From Squalus acanthias (lineage: Eukaryota), in the NCBI GenBank assembly GCA_030390025.1, contig CM059432.1:89344001-89408000 (forward strand): a stretch of 64,000 nucleotides of DNA. Reading direction: 5' to 3'. The notes under the pieces are model-generated. The model was given only the letters and a program-made list of their open reading frames with translations, was not told the DNA's origin and did not search any database. Below, in pieces: positions 14,930 to 61,075 of the stretch (positions within the stretch are counted from its first letter, which is position 1; each line of letters starts with the position of its first letter). Position numbers and translations under genes: made by a program.

Positions 14930-17345
14930 AAAATGATACAGCACCGAAGGAGGCCATTCGGCCTGTGCTGGCTCTTTGAAAGAGCTATCCAATTAGTCCC
15001 ACACCCTGGCTCTTGCCCCATAGACTGGCAAATTTTTCCCCTTCAAGTATTTATCCAGTTCCATTTTGAAAGTTACTATTGAATCTACTTTAACCACCCT
15101 ATCAGGCAGTGCATTTCAGATCATAACAATTTGCTGCATAATTATTTTTTCCTGATGTCGCCTCTGGTTCTTTTGCCAGTTACCTTAAATCTGTGTCCTC
15201 TGGTTACTGACCCTTCTGCCAGTGGAAACAGTTTCTCCTTATTTACCCTTCGTGATTGTGAACACCTCTATCAAATCTCCCTTTAACCTTCTCTGCCCTC
15301 AGGAAAACAACCCCAGTTTATTTAGTCTCTTGACGTAACTGTAGTCGTTCATTCCTGGTACCATTCTAGTAAGTCTCCACTGCACCCTCTTTGGCCTTGA
15401 CATCTTTCCTAAAGTGTGGTGTCCAGAACTGGCCACAATACTCCAGATGGGGCTTAACCAGTGTTTTATAAAGTTTGTCATAACTTCTTTGCTTTTGTAC
15501 TCTGTGCTAAGAATCCCGTATTCCTTTTTAACAGCCTTCTCAGTTTGTCCTGCCACCTTTAAAGACTTGTGTACGTACACCCCCAGGTGTCTCTGTTCTT
15601 ACACCCTGGTTGAAATTGTGTCATTTAGTTTATAGTGCTTCTCCTCATTCTTCCTACAAAAATGAATCTGTGTTAAATTTCATCTGTCATGTGTCTGTCC
15701 ATTTGACCAGTCTATGTCCTCCTGAAGTCTGTTACTATCCTCCTCACTGTTTACTACATTTCCAAGTATTGTGTCATCTGCAAACTTTGCAATTATGCCT
15801 CCTATACCTAAGTCCAAGTCATTAATATATGTCAAAAAGAGCAGTTGTTCCAACACCGATCCCTGGGGAACATCACTGCACACTTTCCTCCAGTCTGAAA
15901 AACAACCGTTAACTACTCTCTGTTTCTGTCCCTTTGCCAATTTCGTATCCATGCAGCCACTGCCCCTTTAATCCCATGGACTTCAATCTTGTTAACAAGT
16001 CTATTATGTCTGTTATGTACTGGCCCAGAAATTCGTCCGAATACGGGAGAGTACGCATTGTGTACTCACCCATATTCAGTCCCGAAGTGCCGGTTTCCTG
16101 CATGCACTGCGCATGCGCGGGAAACCGGCACTTCCGATATTGCGAAGGGGCCGGTTCCTAAGTGAACCGCGTGCGCACTACAGGCTGTGCGCACGCAGCA
16201 CACTTAGTTTTTTTTTCAGGTTTGAACGCGAAGGTAAGTGTTGAAGATTTTACACATGAAGAAAGGAGGCGTAAGACCCCCTTTTAACAAGGTAAGTAGT
16301 TAATTAAGTATTATTTAAAAAAAATTTCAACAGGTTTATCTTTTTTAGAGACTTTAAAGAAAGGTAAGTTTATTTTTATAACTTTTAAAAAGAATTTAAA
16401 TTTTTTCAAAAATTTAAATTTTTGTTTAAAGTGGTTAATTTATTTAACTATGGTTATTTTATTAATGTGATGTTTTTTAAATTTAATTGAGGTTTAGCTA
16501 TTCTTTTGGGGGCAATTTGTATTCATAGTTTTAACAGCTCTTCCTGTCAAAACTATGAATGAAAGATGGTGTGCTGCCATTGGCTCTAACTGGCCCACGT
16601 GATCCCAGAGGTTGCATCGAACTAACTGCGCCTCTGAGACACGCACACACTGTGCACCGGCACCAGGGAGAGGCCCAGGAACTGAAGTTCGTGTGGGCCA
16701 AAACCATAAAGGCAGGCGCGGAGTGCGATATCGCGGGGGATCCTTACCCCCGCGGCAACCATCGAAGTCCAATTTCTGGGCCCTAGTTTATCAAAAGCCT
16801 TTTGAAAGTCCATATGTACAACATCAACTGGACTACCCTCATCAACCCTCTCCGTAACTTTATCAAAGAACTTTAGTCAAACACAATTTGCCTTTAACAA
16901 ATCTGTACTGGCTTTCATTTATTAACCCATATTTTCCAAGTGCTAATTAATTTTGTCCCAGATTATTGTCTCTAAAAGTTTCCCCACCACCAATGTTAGG
17001 CTGACTGGTCTGCAGTTTCCGGGTTTATCCCTCTCCCCTTTTTTGAACAGGGATGCAACATTTGCAATCCTCCAGTCCTCTGGTACCACTCCTATATCTA
17101 TAAGGATTGGAAGATTGTGGACAGAGCCTCTGCAATTTCCAACCATACTTCCCTCAGCAACCTAGGATGCATCCCATCCGGACCGTGACTTTTCTACTTT
17201 GAGTGCTGCCAAACTTTTGAGTATCTCCTCTTTATCTATTTTTATCCCACCCAATTTCTCTATTACCTCCTCCTTTACTGTGACATTAGCAGCATTCTAA
17301 TATTTAGTGAAGACAGATGCAATGTATTAATTTAGTACTTCAATG
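14930..17345 (-). mobile_element. Degraded 5'-truncated CR1, split by a MITE at 16022-16782
   Basis: VPEDWRIANV, DFQKAFDK, VPQGSVL and FADDT fragments; CR1 3' tail at ~14935-14970. Confidence 0.88.
16022..16782. mobile_element. Harbinger-type MITE, family A copy 1 (761 bp)
   Basis: TIRs GGCCCAGAAATT...AATTTCTGGGCC; interrupts the CR1 RT just after DFQKAFDK; highly similar to 22160-22903. Confidence 0.9.
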
Positions 17346-20930: not shown

Positions 20931-22159
20931 GTTAAAGCCTGTGAGGCCTGACTCTAAGAGCTTTTAATATAGCCCATTCCATATCGTCCTCCTCCAATAT
21001 AAAAATAGAGAAATTCCCATTGAGAATGCAAATCAATGCAAATCAGTCCTGTGAGCAGAGCTGATTGAAACTAGCAGCAAAGGTTCTGACTGAACATTCA
21101 AAGTACTAATAGGTTCAATATGCAGGCAAAGTACCACCAATCTCAGCACACAAAACGGCCTCCCAAATTTTGGCATCGCCCTCAGGGATTTAAATGAATA
21201 TTTTGCATCTGTGTTCACTATGGAGAAGGACGATGTAGGCATAGAAATCAGACAGGGGGATTGTGATATATTTGAACAAATTAGTATTGAGAGGGAGGAG
21301 GTACTAGCGGTTTTAGCGGGCTTAAAAGTGGATAAATCCCCAGGCCCAGACGAGATGTATCCCAGGCTGCTGTGTGAGGCAAGGGAGGAGATTGCAGGGG
21401 CTCTGACACAAATTTTCAGAACCTCTCTGGCAACAGGGGAGGTGCCAGAGGACTGGAGAACAGCTAACATAGTACCATTGTTCAACAGGGGTAGTAGGGA
21501 TAAACCAGGGAATTACAGGCCAGTGAGCCTAACATCAGTGGTAGGGAAATTAGTGGGAAAAATTCTGAGGGACAGAATTAGTCTCCACTTGGAGAGGCAG
21601 GGATTAATCAAGGATAGTCAGCATGGCTTTGTCAGGGGGAGATCATGTCTGACCAATTTGATTGAACTTTTCGAGGGGGTGACTAGGTGTGTGGATGAGG
21701 GTAGTGCAGTTGATGTGGTCTACATGGACTTCAGTAAGGCTTTTGACAAAGTCCCGCATGAGAGACTGGTCAAGAAGGTAAGAGCCCATGGGATCCAGGG
21801 CAACTTGGCATATTGGATCCAAAATTGGCTTAGTGGCAGGAGGCAGAGGGTGATGGTCGAATGTTGTTTTTGTGACTGGAAGCCTGTGTCCAGTGGTGTA
21901 CCGCAGGGATCGGTGCTGGGTCCTTTGCTGTTTGTAGTGTACATTAATGATTTAGATATGAATGTAGGAGGTATGATCAGTAAGTTTGCAGATGACACGA
22001 AAATTGGTGGGGTGGTAAATAGCGAGGAGGGAAGCCTCAAGCTACAGGACGATATAGACGGTTGGTCAGATGGGCAGATCAGTGGCAAATGGAATTTAAC
22101 CCTGAAAAGTGTGAGGTGATGCATTTTGGGAGGACTAACAAGGCAAGGGAATACACAAT

Positions 22160-22903
22160 GGCCCGAAAATTAGACCTAATACGCGAGAGTACGCACTGTG
22201 TACTCTCGCGTTTTAGGTCTCCAATTGCCGGTTTCCAGCATGCACTGCACATGCGCGGGAAACCGGCACTTCGTGAACTCAAAAGGGGGCGGTTCCTAAG
22301 TGAACCGCGTGTGCGCTACAGGCTGCGCGCACGCAGTGCACTTAGTGCTTTGAACGCGCAGGTAAGCATGGAAGATTTTGCACATAAAGAAAGGAGGCGT
22401 AAGACCCTCTTTTAACAAGGTAAGTAGTTAATTAAGTATTATTTTACATTTTTTTCAACAGGTTTATCTTTTTTAGAGACTTTAAAGAAAGGTAAGTTTA
22501 TTTTTATAACTTTTAAAAAGATTTTAAATTTTTTCAAAAATTTAATTTTTTGTTTAAAGTGGTTAATTTATTTAACTATACTTATTTTATTAATGTGATG
22601 GCTTTTTTTTTAAATTTAATTGAGGTTTAGCTGTTCTTTTGGGGGGGTATAGATTCATAGCTTTGACAGGTCTTCCTGTCAAAACTATGAATGAAAGATG
22701 GTGTGCTGCCATTGGCTCTAACTGAATCACGTGATCCCAGAGCTCGCACGAACTAACTGCGTCTCTGGCTCACGCAAGCACTGCACAGCTGCAGCCTTGA
22801 AACTAAAGTTCGTGTGAGCCCGGAGGGAAAAGGTAGGCGCGCAGTGAGATATCGCGGGGAAGCCTTACCCCCGCAGGAACGCTCCGTGTTTAATTTCTGG
22901 GCC
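22160..22903. mobile_element. Harbinger-type MITE, family A copy 2 (744 bp), 3-bp TSD AAT
   Basis: TIRs GGCCCGAAAATTA / TAATTTCTGGGCC; AAT at 22157-22159 and 22904-22906. The empty site ATACAC-AAT-GAATGG is present in the sister CR1 at ~59531-59545. Confidence 0.95.
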
Positions 22904-23054
22904 AATGAATGGTAGGATCCTAGGAAGGACAGAGGATCAGAGGGACCTTGATGTGGATGTACATAGATCCCTGAAGGCAGCAGGACAGGTAGCTAAGGTG
23001 GTTAAAAAGGTATATGGGATACTTGCCTTCATTAGCCGAGGCATAGAATATAAG

Positions 23055-23270
23055 TCATGATGCGGAGATGCCGGTGTTGGACTGGGGTGGACAAAATTGA
23101 GAGGTCGCACAACACCAGGTTATAGTCCAACAGTTTTATTTGAAATCACAAGCTTTCGGAGCTATCGATTGCTCCTTCCTTCACCTGAGGAAGGAGCAAT
23201 CGATAGCTCTGAAAGCTTGTGATTTCAAATAAAACTGTTGGACTATAACCTGGTGTTGTGCGACCTCTCA
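23055..23270. mobile_element. Fold-back Penelope-like mini-element with hammerhead motif; 12-bp TSD
   Basis: TSD ATAGAATATAAG at 23043-23054 and 23271-23282. Inverted arms 23096-23180 and 23188-23272 match at 84/85. The empty site is present in the sister CR1 at ~59676. Confidence 0.9.
23181..23222 (+). ncRNA. Minimal type I hammerhead ribozyme motif
   Basis: TCAC-CTGAGGA-A-GGAGC(aatcgata)GCTCT-GAAA-GC-TT-GTGA: helix I TCAC/GTGA, core CUGANGA...GAAA, palindromic AGCT in place of helix III, and a UH cleavage site. Confidence 0.75.
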
Positions 23271-24077
23271 ATAGAATATAAGAGCAGGGAGGTTATGATG
23301 GAGCTGTACAAAACGTTAGTTAGGCCACAGCTGGAATACTGTGTGCAGTTCTGGTTGCCACACTATAGGAAGGATGTGATTGCATTGGAGAGGGTGCAGA
23401 GGAGATTCACCAGGATGTTACCTGGGCTGCAGCGCTTCAGCTATGAAGAGAGACTGGACAGGCTGGGGTTGTTTTCCTTAGAGCAGAGAAGGCTGAGGGG
23501 GGACCTGATTGAGGTGTACAAAATTATGAGGGGCATAGATAGGGTAGATAGAAAGGACCTTTTCCCCTTAGTAGAGTGGTCAATAACCAGGGGGCATAGA
23601 TTCAAGGTAAGGAGCAGGAAGTTTAGAGGGGATTTGAAGAAAAACTTTTTCACCCAGAGGGTGGTTGGAATCTGAACTCACTGCCTGAAAGGGTGGTAGA
23701 GGCAGGAACCCTCACAACATTCAAGAAGCATTTAGATGAGCACCTGAAACGCCATAGCATAAAAGGCTACGGACCAAGTGCTGGAAAATGGGATTAGAAT
23801 AGACAGGGCTTGATGGCCGGTGCGGACATGATGGGCTGAAGGGCCTCTTTCTGTGCTGTATAACTCTATCTATGACTCTATGACCTTCCTGCAGCTCTTA
23901 CCACCACTTATAAAGTGATGGTAATTGTTTGGGGCAGATAATGGGTACAATGGATCGATGGAATTAGCTACACCCCATTTACATAAGGCAGATTGGGCTC
24001 CTGATGGGTCTTGAAGGGGACTAATGTTTTTTTTGGTGGGTTAACTCAGGTGCAAGCTTTCAGCAGTGAATTTGATT

Positions 24078-52739: not shown

Positions 52740-52844
52740 CTCTTTCAGTTCCGACGAAGGGTTTCGACCTGAAACGTTAACTCTCTTTCTCTCTCCTCGG
52801 ATGTTGCCTGGCCTGCTGAGTTTTTCCAGCGTTTTCTGTTGTTA
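52740..52844 (+). mobile_element. 105-bp Penelope-like insertion with minimal hammerhead motif; 14-bp TSD
   Basis: TSD TAATGAATTTCTTG at 52726-52739 and 52845-52858. Motif AGTT-CCGACGA-A-GGGT(ttcg)ACCT-GAAA-CG-TT-AACT at 52747-52782. Confidence 0.8.
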
Positions 52845-55217: not shown

Positions 55218-56631
55218 AAATGGCATGCTGGCCTTTATATCTAGAGGACTAAAATACAATGGTGCAGGAGGGAGGGCTTTAGATTCCTGAGGCATTGGGA
55301 CCATTTCTGGGGAAGGTGGGACCTATACAAACTGGACAGGTTACACCTCAACAGAACCGGGACCAATATTCTCGCGGGGAGGTTTGCTAGTGCTGTTGGG
55401 GAGGGTTTAAACTAGCTTGGCAGGTGGATGGGTACCAGCATATAGGAGTAGAAAAGAGGAATAAGGTGCATGAAAGAGTGAGTGTGTTGGATAGTACTAG
55501 AGAAGAAATTAGTACTTGAGGCGGAAATAGTACCATATTAGATAGGAGCAGACCAAGAAAGACTACGAAAAATTCAAAAATGGGTTTAGAATGCATGTAC
55601 GTAAACGCACACAGTGAGGTAAAAAAGGTTGGTGAGCTACAAGCACAATTAGCCATGTGGCAATATGATGTTGTGGCAATAACGGAAACGTGGCTTAAAA
55701 ACGGTGAGGACTGGGCACTTAATATTCAAGGGTACAAAGTGTTCAGAAAAGATAGGGAAGGAAAAAAGGGAGGTGGGGTGGCAGTGCTGATTAAGGAAGA
55801 CATTGTAGTGCTGGAAAGGGAGGATGTTCTTGAGGGGACAAGGACAGAATCCATTTGGTTAGAGTTGAGGAGCAAAAAGGGTATGATCACGCTATTGGGG
55901 GTATTCTATAGGCCTCCAAATAGTGAGAGGGAGGTAGAGGAGCAAATCTGCAGGGAGTGAAATTAAGAAACACTTCTACACACAAAGGGTGGTAGACGTT
56001 TAGAACTCCCTTCCGTAAATGGCAATTAATGCCAGATCATTTGTTAATTTTAAATCTGAGATTGATAGATTTTTGTTAACCAAAGGTATTAAGGGATATG
56101 GGCTAAAGGCGGGTATATAGAGTTAGGTCACAGAGCAGCCATGATCTCATTGAATGGCGGAACAGACTCGAGGGGCTAAATGGCCTACTCCTGTTCCTAT
56201 GTTTAGTTGGGCATATAAATTAACATACGTCATAGGGAACCTTAAAGGGTGCAAAAGAAAGACGAAATTATGGAGTAAGTTAATCAGGGTTCTATGAGTC
56301 AGAATCTGAAAGAGAAAGCTAGTTTAATGTTTTGAAGCTGCGCTGAAGAGTTTACACCGAATGCATTAACCTCTCAGAGAGATGGAACAGCTGTAACAGG
56401 CCGAATGGCTTCTTTAAGTGCTATAAAACTCTATGAGGTGACGTTTCCTCCTGAGTGCACATCGTGCAGGCGGGCGGGCAGCCACCCAGTAGTCACAGCA
56501 GGAGACCTGGTTCGTTTTGCGGGCCGAGGTTATTTGCATCAGGACAGTGGGCTGCAACCGGCTTCGAGCTCGGGGCTGCCGGAATATCATGTGGCACAGC
56601 AGGGCTATAGCCAAATAAGACAGGTGCATTG

Positions 56632-57066
56632 GAGGCAGGGGGCGGGGCAGCTCCTTCCCGGGAAGGGGCGTTGCAGCTCGATCTCGGGAGGGGCGGGGCA
56701 CCGCGATCTCGATCTCGGCAGGGGGCGGGGCAGCTCCTTCCCGGGAAGGGGCGTTGCAGCTCGATCTCGGGAGGGGCGGGGCACCGCGATCTCGATCTCG
56801 GCAGGGGGTGGGGCAGCTCCTTCCCGGGAAGGGGTGGGGCAGCTCGATCTCGGGAGGGGCGGGGCACCGCGATCTCGATCTCAGGAGGGGGCGGGCCAGT
56901 TCGATCTCGGGAGGGGGCGGGGCAGTTCGATATCGGGAGGGGGCGGGGCACATCGATCTCGGGAGGGGAGAGGCAAATCAATCTCGAGAGGGGAGGGGCA
57001 GATCGATCTCGGGGGGGAGGGGCAGATCAATCTCGGGAGGGGGAGGGGCAGATCGATTTCAGGAGG
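56632..57066. repeat. G/CpG-rich minisatellite, left part; includes three 83-bp higher-order units
   Basis: Core GGGGCAGCTCGATCTCGGGAGG; CAGCTCCTTCCCGGGAAGGGG recurs at 56648, 56731 and 56814. Confidence 0.9.
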
Positions 57067-57260
57067 GGATATGGAGTGGAACTATAGTAGGGGGTGATGC
57101 ACAGCCAAATATAGAGGAAAAAACAAGTCAGCCTGGAAGGCAGAGCAAATATGTAATGGCACAAGGGAGTATGACAAGGCTGGTTGGCATTTATTTTAAT
57201 GCAAGGAGTCTTGCGAGTAAGGCAGATGAATTGAAGGTGTTGATGAACACATGGGACTAT

Positions 57261-57468
57261 CCATGATGTGGAGATGCCAGTGTTGGACTGGGGTGGACAA
57301 ATGTGAGAAGTCACACAACACCAGGTTATAGCCCAACAGCTTTATTTGAAATCACAAGCTTTCGGAGCGCTGCTCCTTCGTCAGGTGAAGTGATGAAGGA
57401 GCAGCGCTCCGAAAGCTTGTGATTTCAAATAAAGCTGTTGGACTATAACCTGGTGTTGTGCGACTTCT
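57261..57468. mobile_element. Fold-back Penelope-like mini-element with hammerhead motif; ~13-bp TSD
   Basis: TSD CACATGGGA(C/G)TAT at 57248-57260 and 57469-57481. Inverted arms 57301-57383 and 57391-57473 match at 80/83. Confidence 0.9.
57352..57388 (-). ncRNA. Minimal type I hammerhead ribozyme motif (intact core)
   Basis: Minus strand reads TCAC-CTGACGA-A-GGAGC(agc)GCTCC-GAAA-GC-TT-GTGA. Confidence 0.8.
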
Positions 57469-60282
57469 CACATGGGAGTATGATATTGTTGCTATCACAG
57501 AGACATGGTTGAGGGAGGGGCAGGACTGGCAGCTCAATATTCCGGGGTATAGAATCTTCAGGCGAGACAGAGGGGGGTGTAAAAGAGGAGGGGGTGTCGC
57601 AATATTAATCAAGGAGTCAATTACTGCTGTAAGGAGGGATGATATCTTAGCAGGTTCCTCTAATGAGGCCATATGGGTAGAACTTAAAAACAAAAAGGGG
57701 ACAAGCACTTTGCTGGGAGTGTACTATAGGCCCCCAAACAGTCAGGGGGAGATAGAGGAACAGATATGTAGGCAAATCTCAGAGAAGTGTAGAAATAATA
57801 GGGTAATAATAGTAGGGGATTTCAACTTCCCCAATATTAACTGGGATAGTCAGAGTGTGAAAGGCTTAGAGGGTGCGGAATTCTTAAAGTGCATCCAGGA
57901 GAGCTTTTTGAGCCAGCATGTAGAAAGTCCAACAAGAGAGGGGGCGGTACTGGACCTAATTCTAGGGAATGTATCCGGGCAAGTGGTAGATGTGTCAGTA
58001 GGAGAGCATTTTGGTGACAGTGACCATAATTCGGTGAGATTTAAGGTAGTCATGGAAAAGGACAAAGATGGACCGGAAATAAAGGTTCTAAACTGGGGGA
58101 AGGCCGATTTTAATATGATAAGGCAGGATCTGGCCAAAATGGACTGGGATCAGCTACTTGTAGGAAAATCCACATCAGAGCAATGGGAGTCTTTCAGAAA
58201 GGAAATAGAGAGAGTACAACGCCAACATGTTCCCGTAAAGGTCAAGGGTGGGACCAACAAGCCCAGGGAACCCTGGATGTCAAGGGATATACAAGAATGG
58301 ATTAGGAAAAAGATGAAGGCTTTTGGCAGATACAAAGGACTAAAAACAGTGGAAGCCCTAGAGGAGTATAGAAAGTGCAGGGGGGTACTTAAAAAAGAAA
58401 TTAGGAGAGCAAAGAGGGGGCATGAAAAAACACTGGTGGACAAAATAAAGGAAAATCCAAGGTGTTTTATAAGTATATTAAGGGCAAGAGGATAACCAGG
58501 GAGTAAGTAGGGCACATTAGGGACCAAAGTGGCAATCTGTGTATTGTGCCGGAAGATGTAGGTGAGGTTTTAAATGAATATTTTGCATCTGTGTTCACTA
58601 TGGAGAAGGGTGATGTAGGCATAGAAATCAGGCAGGGGGATTGTGATGTACTTGAACAAATTAGTATTGAGAGGGAGGAGGTACTAGCGGTTTTAGCGGG
58701 CTTAAAAGTGGATAAATCCCCAGGCCCTAACGGGATGTATCCCAGGCTGCTGTGTGAGGCAAGGGAGGAGATTGCAGGGGCTCTGACACAAATTTTCAGA
58801 ACCTCTCTGGCCACAGGGGAGGTGCCAGAGGACTGGAGAACAGCTAACATAGTACCATTGTTCAACAGGGGTAGTAGGGATAAACCAGGGAATTACAGGC
58901 CAGTGAGCCTAACATCAGTGGTAGGGAAATTAGTGGGAAAAATTCTGAGGGACAGAATTAGTCTCCACTTGGAGAGGCAGGGATTAATCAAGAATAGTCA
59001 GCATGGCTTTGTCAGGGGGAGATCATGTCTGACCAATTTGATTGAATTTTTTGAGGGGGTGACTAGGTGTGTGGATGAGGGTAGTGCAGTTGATGTAGTC
59101 TACATGGACTTCAGTAAGGCTTTTGACAAAGTCACACATGGGAGACTGGTCAAGAAGGTAAGAGCCCATGGGATCCAGGGCAATTTGTCACATTGGATCC
59201 AAAATTGGCTTAGTGGCAGGAGGCAGAGGGTGATGGTCGAAGGTTGTTTTTGTGACTGGAAGCCTGTGTCCAGTGGTGTACCGCAGGGATCGGTGCTGGG
59301 TCCTTTGCTGTTTGTAGTGTACATTAATGATTTAGATATGAATGTAGGAGGTATGATCAGTAAGTTCGCAGATGACACGAAAATTGGTGGAGTGGTAAAT
59401 AGTGAGGAGGGAAGCCTCAGGCTATAGGACGATATAGACGGGATGGTTAGATGGGCAGAACAGTGGCAAATGAAATTTAACCCTGAAAAGTGTGAGGTGA
59501 TGCATTTAACAGGACAAACAAGACAAGGGAATACACAATGAATGGTAGGATCCTAGGAAGGACAGAGGATCAGAGGGACCTTGGTGTGCATGTACATAGA
59601 TCCCTGAAGGCAGCAGGACAGGTAGATAAGGTGGTTAAAAAGGCATATGGGATACTTGCCTTCATTAGCCGAGGCATAGAATATAAGAGCAGGGAGGTTA
59701 TGATGGAGCTGTACAAAACATTAGTTAGGCCACAGCTGGAATACTGTGTGCAGTTCTGGTCACCACACTATAGGAGGGATGTAATTGCATTGGAGAGGGT
59801 GCAGAGGAGATTCATCAGGATGTTACCTGAGCTGGAGCGCTTCAGCTATGAAGAGAGACTGGACAGGCTGGGGTTGTTTTCTTTAGAGCAGAGAAGGCTG
59901 AGGGGGACCTGATTGAGGTGTACAAAATTATGAGGGGCATAGATAGGGTAGATAGAAAGGAACTTTTCCACTTAGTAGAGGGGTCAATAACCAGGGGGCA
60001 TAGATTCAAGGTAAGGAGCAGGAGGTTTAGAGGGGATTTGAGGAAAAACTTTTTCACCTAGAGGGTGGTTGGAATCTGGAACTCACTGCCTGAAAGGGTG
60101 GTAGAGGCAGGAACCCTCACAACATTCAAGAAGCATTTAGATGAGCACATGAAACGCCATAGCATACAAGGCTACGGACCAAGTGCTGGAAGATGGGATT
60201 AGAATAGACAGGGCTTGATGGCCGGCGTGGACACGATGGGCCGAAGGGCCTCTTTCTGTGCTATATGACTCTATGACTATGA

Positions 60283-60790
60283 GGGCGAGGAGGGGGAGGG
60301 GGAGGGTAGCTCGATCTCGGGAGGGGGTGGGACAGGCACGATCTCGGAAGGGGGAGGGGCGGGGCAGCTCGATTTCGGGAGGGGGCAGGGGCAGCTCGAT
60401 CTCGGGAGGTGGAGGGGGCGGGGCAGTGTGATCTCGGGAGGGGAGGGGTCGGGGCAGCTCGATCTCGGGAGGGGGAGAGGGCGGGGCAGCTCGATCTCGG
60501 GAGGGGGAGAGGGCGGGGCAGCTCGATCTCGGGAGGGGGAGGGGGCGGGGCAGCTCGATCTCGGGAGGGGGAGAGGGCGGGGCAGCTCGATCTCGGGAGG
60601 GGGAGGGGGCGGGGCAGCTCGATCTCGGGAGGGGTAGAGGGTGGGGCAGCTCGATCTCGGGAGGGGGAGGGGTCGGGGCAGCTCGATCTCGGGAGGGGGA
60701 GGGGGCGGGGCAGCTCGATCTCGGGAGGGGGCGGGGCAGCTCGATCTCGGGAGGGGGCGGGGCAGCTCGATCTCGGGAGGGGGAGGAGGC
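60283..60790. repeat. G/CpG-rich minisatellite, right part (about 16 units of ~26-33 bp)
   Basis: Tandem GGGGCAGCTCGATCTCGGGAGGGGG with variable G/A spacers. Confidence 0.92.
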
Positions 60791-60819
60791 CGGATTTGTG
60801 AAGTCTGGAGGTGCCCTCT

Positions 60820-61075
60820 TCCTCTTTTAATGTAAACCAATCAATTATCTGTAACTAAATAAAACTTTAAAGGAAACTTAACAAATCAAATTAAAATTTG
60901 GTAGTCCGGGGTGACGATGCACTCCAGCCCCCGCGGCGCCCACCGGTCGCGGAAAAACTCAAGCGTGCCGGCGGACACCGCGTGCTCCATCTCCAGGGCC
61001 ACCCGGGCACGAACATGGCCGCGGAAGAGAGGCAGGCAATCGGGCCGAACGAGGAGGTGCCCTCTTGCTGCTCCC
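60820..61075 (-). mobile_element. Tx1/L1-group LINE ORF2 C-terminal fragment with short 3'UTR
   Basis: DCLPLFRGHVRARVALEMEHAVSAGTLEFFRDRWAPRGLECIV...stop resembles Tx1-type ORF2 C-termini (recognised from memory); CpG-rich. Confidence 0.6.

Follow-up and report, generated by a model that had tools for sequence, protein, structure and literature searches.

Penelope-like elements with an endonuclease (EN+ PLEs) encode a single ORF with GxKF and DKG motifs, a reverse transcriptase (RT) and a CX2-5CxxC linker, and their endonuclease is a C-terminal GIY-YIG domain with CCHH (Craig et al. 2021, PMC8557442). Canonical elements of the Neptune/Nematis type, which are defined by this linker before the endonuclease and by two Cys residues between GIY and YIG, have partial-tandem pLTRs, an adjacent inverted and 5'-truncated copy, and a tail of 30 to 40 bp at one end. 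In the parts of that paper available to us, the tail is ascribed to endonuclease resolution, and the route of inverted, tailed Penelope insertions is still described as undefined (PMC8557442). The minimal hammerhead ribozymes of metazoan PLEs have a short helix I, an extra nucleotide that separates position 9 from 10.1, a G10.1-C11.1 pair and a palindromic 15.2-16.2, and two motifs often lie on opposite strands 100 to 700 bp apart (Cervera and De la Pena 2014, PMC4209133). Pen2a of the rotifer Adineta vaga has an inverted pLTR with a TATA box and an Inr-like motif, a one-sided 31-bp tail and a TSD of 9 to 10 bp (Arkhipova et al. 2013, PMC3846280). The Poseidon protein cuts and extends both target strands in vitro from two start sites that bound the tail, is predicted to be dimeric and mainly uses uncut RNA (Frangieh 2024, PMC11167929). 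Animal non-LTR retrozymes are short, hammerhead-bearing units that derive from PLE pLTRs and are amplified as such, head to tail (bioRxiv 10.64898/2026.07.22.740005). The available text of these sources already describes copies that are inverted, truncated and tailed on one side (PMC8557442, PMC3846280), hammerheads in pLTRs (PMC4209133) and a pair of internal start sites (PMC11167929).

The window analyzed in this study is a stretch of 64,000 nucleotides of the Squalus acanthias genome (assembly GCA_030390025.1, contig CM059432.1, positions 89,344,001 to 89,408,000), and it contains a hairpin insert with a one-sided tail. The anatomy given in the first-pass annotation was confirmed in every dimension in the window sequence: a 12-bp TSD, ATAGAATATAAG, is present on both sides (23043 to 23054 and 23271 to 23282) and encloses 216 bp, which consist of an unpaired tail of 41 nt (23055 to 23095) and two arms (23096 to 23180 and 23188 to 23272) that are complementary at 84 of 85 positions around a 7-nt spacer (23181 to 23187). 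The tail, on the minus strand, is the final 41 nt of the leader of an element described below, and it ends in the start codon of the element's ORF (ATG, 23058 to 23056 of the minus strand). The left arm is an inverted leader copy, also on the minus strand, which is 5'-truncated within the hammerhead core, as had been claimed, and lacks C3-U4-G5. The arm junction overlaps by 2 nt (23179 and 23180), and the true sense copy on the plus strand is therefore 23179 to 23270, which contains the spacer. This sense copy begins 1 to 3 nt after an Inr-like A (position -128 of the parent) and reaches to a proximal end, "A" (about -38), while the tail extends to a distal end, "B". A minimal type I hammerhead motif is located at 23181 to 23222 (+), with helix I TCAC/GTGA, CTGAGGA, an extra A, stem II, GAAA and an AGCT palindrome; its predicted cut, after 23218, had been read at the correct position. 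It is followed within the leader by AATAAA (23228 to 23233, +), a candidate poly(A) signal by sequence. The last base of the left TSD also matches the element end, and the first 2 nt of the right TSD (AT) likewise match the element; this target microhomology of 1 to 2 nt is a difference from Poseidon of Anolis carolinensis (PAc) as described in the available text of PMC11167929. The hairpin folds at -169.3 kcal/mol (z = -25), and none of 200 shuffles folds equally well.

The insert interrupts a LINE copy (21186 to 23875, +; RVT_1 in 21094 to 22116), presumably CR1-like from its resemblance, which is 95 to 97% identical to a paralog at 58566 to 60282. The TSD sequence is present once in this paralog, at about 59676, which represents the empty site. 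This host LINE is interrupted by a different repeat as well (22159 to 22616), some 150 bp upstream of the stub; a second copy of that repeat lies 6.1 kb away at 16021 to 16488. The paralogous LINE copy is flanked by G-rich minisatellite arrays with units of 26 to 32 nt (56630 to 57090 and 60290 to 60820).

A parent with RT plus GIY-YIG that ends in the sequence of the insert, the search for which had been proposed, was found in the genome. A search with the ORF start yielded tandem head-to-tail arrays of a 3138-bp unit, with a period of 3137 to 3142 bp in three arrays, in which eight of the nine ORFs started are intact at 892 amino acids and one is cut at 367 amino acids. At the unit junctions, the stop codon is followed by about 460 nt of noncoding pLTR, the hammerhead, the tail and the ATG, the tail ending in the start codon. 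The 892-residue protein matches RVT_1 (E = 2.7e-8); its C-terminal part matches GIY-YIG with E = 7e-4, which is below the Pfam curated cutoff, and no GIY-YIG is listed for the whole protein, while PF01541 is present in many of its relatives. The protein carries GxKF, DKG, YIDD, a CX4CxxC linker (CHGKLCKTC) and two Cys residues between GIY and YIG (VVYLIRCRKEC...YIG), and its best named relatives are uncharacterized shark proteins (80 to 94%). On these sequence grounds, the parent is a young EN+ PLE with RT plus GIY-YIG and, because the linker and the two Cys residues fit the definitions of PMC8557442, it is placed in the Neptune/Nematis type, the two clades being left unseparated. Its single ORF resembles that of canonical EN+ PLEs, whereas the window insert, unlike the canonical unit in the available text of PMC8557442, consists of leader only, without the ORF body. 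A 30-mer from the arm has 20,243 exact matches in the genome of 3.7 Gb, and a control has none. The 216-base hairpin is a short insertion (stub) of this abundant young element and not a separate mini-element.

To compare such stubs, a census was made of 71 regions on contig C1, which cover the first 100 exact 30-mer matches listed and form a sample biased to young copies; positions are given in the coordinates of one natural unit with the A of the ATG as 0, and arm ends were taken from BLAST with an error of a few nucleotides. The 3' ends of the arms are bimodal, at about -38 (A) and at about +1 to +5 (B), approximately 40 nt apart. As in PAc, two 3' ends bound the tail and the hammerhead lies in the pLTR; the PAc start sites are 111 to 118 nt inside the ORF, whereas the shark sites are at and before the ATG, and in the available text, which does not analyze inverted inserts, the PAc hammerhead overlaps the start codon and Poseidon, unlike the shark element, has no linker zinc finger (PMC11167929). 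All 33 simple head-to-head pairs combine one A end with one B end, i.e., they have exactly one tail, the chance of which with independent ends is about 2e-11. Another 50 arms (38 A and 12 B) lie outside simple pairs, singly or in complex inserts, and such products are common. TSDs are 10 to 14 bp, mostly 12 bp, in 28 of the 33 pairs. Close pairs at less than 250 nt number 12 among the 71 regions. Arm lengths range from about 50 to 1600 nt and correlate within pairs (Spearman 0.62, p = 1e-4; 0.66 when restricted to the 21 pairs in which an arm extends beyond -135), with some pairs very unequal (e.g., -664 versus -122). The first option of the annotation, a stereotyped minimal Penelope product, is supported as to its Penelope origin, for which the parent has been found; the stereotypy is only loose, given this range of lengths and a pileup of ends immediately 5' of the hammerhead. 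In 19 of the 33 pairs it is the tail-less arm that extends further upstream and in 8 it is the tailed arm; in the other 6 the two are equal. In the 28 pairs of sufficient length, the arms diverge by 0.2% within an insert and by 2.9% between inserts, and the length of the stem-II loop agrees between arms in 21 of 21 scorable pairs, compared with 37% expected by chance. Both arms carry the same source variant.

The same target 12- to 13-mers recur as TSDs in independent inserts (L106, L108, L295, L303, L164, L277, L025 and the window insert at 23043), several of them within LINE copies, which suggests a sequence preference of the endonuclease or hot spots in abundant repeats. Short templated insertions of 5 to 15 nt from arm ends lie between the arms at the junctions of L240, L253, L182 and L199; insertions of this kind resemble those of polymerase-theta-type end joining.

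The 5' ends of the arms accumulate at a narrow wall. In the census, 34 of 115 fall within -132 to -119 (2.4 per nucleotide versus 0.3 to 0.4 on either side, p = 5e-12). The A at -128 lies in TTACTTC, about 30 nt after TATATAT; the two resemble the consensus sequences of an initiator (Inr) element and a TATA box, respectively. The promoter of Drosophila virilis Penelope is TATA-less, which counts against the TATA reading (PMC2377424), although an A. vaga pLTR combines a TATA box with an Inr-like motif (PMC3846280). Across the genome, a purine replaces T at -129 in 747 of 14,116 copies (5.3% at one base), while the background further upstream amounts to a loss of 0.9% per base (8,065 to 7,552 copies over 7 nt); the drop from 14,116 to 8,065, attributable to a subfamily without one A there, was left out of this background. 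This purine is G in 78 of the first 100 such copies listed, while hand counts of G/(G+A) at control junction positions gave 20/87 and 9/53, the control patterns having required three mismatches and the test pattern one. At 72 junctions from 70 loci, the target or the other arm accounts for 26 G and 8 A but not for 10 G (one of which, at L266, rests on a weak 7-mer) and no A, and 28 junctions are ambiguous; the split into templated and untemplated bases does not differ significantly between G and A (Fisher, p = 0.17). The arms of L240 stop at -128 on both sides, as do those of L253, and every one of these arms has a G of its own. In LINE-1, an additional G is known to result from cap copying. 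A bias of terminal transferase toward C could give the same signature, and microhomology could account for much of the G excess as well. Contigs from runs presumed to be RNA, four of which were compared, contain the sequence with its two 3' ends; they give no starts, strand or level and were left out of the evidence.

From these features, we consider it probable that the insert is a two-armed copy of the 5' leader, formed by two cDNAs that were primed at both target nicks on a capped sense RNA. The RT-endonuclease would nick both strands of the target with a stagger of about 12 bp, and each nick would prime a cDNA on the RNA. A (about -38 relative to the ATG) would be the start of one cDNA and B (about +1 to +5) that of the other, leaving the one-sided tail, and both would run toward the 5' end of the RNA. 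The protein would engage the leader at the front of the transcript, and synthesis would stop after about 90 to 130 nt at the start (the Inr-like A at -128, with the TATA motif approximately 30 nt upstream), where the cap would often be copied as an extra G. The two cDNA ends would then join head to head via microhomology of 0 to 8 nt (CT in the window copy). The hammerhead, which would occupy the first 40 nt or so of the leader, would simply ride along, with uncut RNA as the main template. The likeliest reading is that both cDNAs come from one RNA molecule, the alternative being two RNAs of one source locus. In LINE-1 twin priming, both target nicks likewise prime cDNA and the products join head to head with microhomology, and the two pieces cover different, nonoverlapping parts of the RNA. 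The shark arms, unlike these, begin close to one another and are duplicates of one sequence.

Self-priming or fold-back is an alternative that we regard as unlikely. A first cDNA or an antisense RNA would fold back at a palindrome or microhomology and be copied into the second arm, and endonuclease resolution would leave the one-sided tail. Identical arms and correlated lengths are together accounted for by this route, some junctions do lie in natural palindromes (TATATA at -159 and ATCGAT at -109), and antisense-RNA self-priming was proposed for rotifer Penelopes and is favored by the Pen2a authors, in the portion of the paper available (PMC3846280). Simple fold-back of a cDNA, however, requires that the tailed arm reach at least as far upstream as the other, which is contradicted by the 19 pairs in which the tail-less arm reaches further. 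An antisense template provides no reason for stops at the sense Inr with an extra G, and fold-back does not fit the two loci at which both arms end at -128 with a G of their own. The shark copy statistics, i.e., the one-tail rule, the shared variant, the pileup at the Inr-like A and the extra G, favor dual priming on capped sense RNA. These four are what the census adds to the published picture; in the literature searched, we found no cap-derived G, strict one-tail rule or shared-variant arms in Penelope inserts and no paper on this shark family, and the available text of PMC8557442 contains neither the strict one-tail rule nor the 5' wall. As constraints from in vivo products, the one-tail rule, the shared-variant arms and the cap-like G fit the in vitro work of 2024 and argue against antisense self-priming.

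It appears improbable that the pileup itself reflects hammerhead cleavage, or RT that stalls or RNA that breaks where the folded hammerhead has its 5' edge, instead of the transcript start. The pileup does adjoin helix I, and junctions that start at the predicted cut (-91) number 122 in the genome, compared with 74 at -92 and 85 at -90, a mild excess of about 1.5-fold; of 30 that were inspected, the majority are genuine 5' ends. The main peak, on the other hand, is 30 to 37 nt upstream of the cut. GAA precedes GTG in 18 of the first 100 -91 junctions listed; GT microhomology with an arm whose end is at -128 explains these 18 and, in part, the excess. Stalling does not predict the extra G, and the natural leader folds no better than its shuffles (z = -0.18). 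The counts at -92, -91 and -90, confounded as they are, thus show no clear 5'-end pileup at the ribozyme cut, and ribozyme-cut RNA is a minor template at most, which agrees with the in vitro result for the lizard element (PMC11167929); judging from the motifs around -128, a transcription start is the likely and better explanation of the wall. In the region L051:1410-1470, the tail segment can pair with a stretch upstream of site A, which puts site A in a loop, the whole fold being not above shuffles.

The hammerhead claimed for the plus arm was recovered by a descriptor of minimal hammerheads at 23181 to 23222 (+), while an Rfam scan gave no hammerhead match and only subthreshold miRNA hairpin models, which are generic hairpins. 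Over all loci examined, the descriptor has 349 matches (overlapping loci being counted more than once), compared with none in three shuffles of 945,698 bases. Conservation of the core and helices across genomic copies, raised earlier as a check, is apparent: the extra A is present in all 349 matches, UH is TT in 348, and the palindrome is AGCT or ACGT in 346. Helix I occurs as TCAC/GTGA, TTAC/GTAA and AGTT/AACT and stem II changes from C-G to T-A and G-U, a covariation that the pairing required by the descriptor biases toward the positive; the compensatory changes span subfamilies and a second family. The short helix I, the extra nucleotide and the palindrome are those of the minimal PLE hammerheads. 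The window motif differs from those in the available text of PMC4209133 in that C11.1 is replaced by T, the motif is locked in a hairpin, and stem II has 5 bp and a palindromic loop. The replacement is the only position at which the arms differ, a C-to-T change at a CpG (23210); C11.1 is a conserved base of the complete motif, and its loss turns G10.1-C11.1 into G-U. With the arms paired, the hammerhead of this copy is predicted to be buried and inactive, for which reason a cleavage test should be negative; such a result would not refute the Penelope identity of the insert.

A further reading of the dual-priming mechanism, which we put forward tentatively and would not yet back over its opposite, concerns the role of the ribozyme. 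A dimeric RT-endonuclease might make two copies of one capped RNA, starting at sites that lie 40 nt from each other and using both nicks, and extend them to the cap, and the hammerhead in the first 40 nt of the mRNA might switch off the message of the element instead of serving to make templates, because cleavage there would remove the cap. If this is true, the stubs are a fossil record of how Penelope integrates in vivo, and thousands of genomic junctions would locate the start site and discriminate dual priming from antisense self-priming. The intact ORF and the natural templates make the mechanism directly testable. While the stub itself is ordinary debris of a known retroelement class, the value lies in the family, which is very young, with some 20,000 ends that are nearly identical and with tandem ORFs that are intact.

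The other option offered by the first-pass annotation, a nonautonomous hairpin (retrozyme- or SINE-like) that is transcribed and reinserted as a unit, does have an exact central junction that occurs 64 times genome-wide in its favor, but it is very improbable and largely refuted, since among 30 of these 64 same-junction copies the tail is on the right in 17, on the left in 11 and uncalled in 2, where a replicating unit would keep one layout, and three stem-II subtypes occur among the 30, matched on both arms. Census junctions are also diverse, no tandem hairpin arrays were seen among the loci examined, and the transcript of such a unit would be one 85-bp duplex. The variation in tail side and subtype instead indicates that the junction re-forms independently at a favored microhomology by the wall. 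The stub, which like the retrozymes is short and hammerhead-bearing and comes from a PLE pLTR, is a head-to-head one-off, whereas retrozymes in the available text are head-to-tail units (bioRxiv 10.64898/2026.07.22.740005).

A second two-armed stub, of an older subfamily, is located in the window at 57262 to 57470, at the front of another LINE copy. Its tail is on the left, its left arm ends exactly at the Inr-like A, and it contains an intact hammerhead motif at 57352 to 57388 on the minus strand. A minimal hammerhead of a second family, with helix I AGTT/AACT and an ACGT palindrome, is present at 52747 to 52782 (+) and also in at least 10 of the fetched loci.
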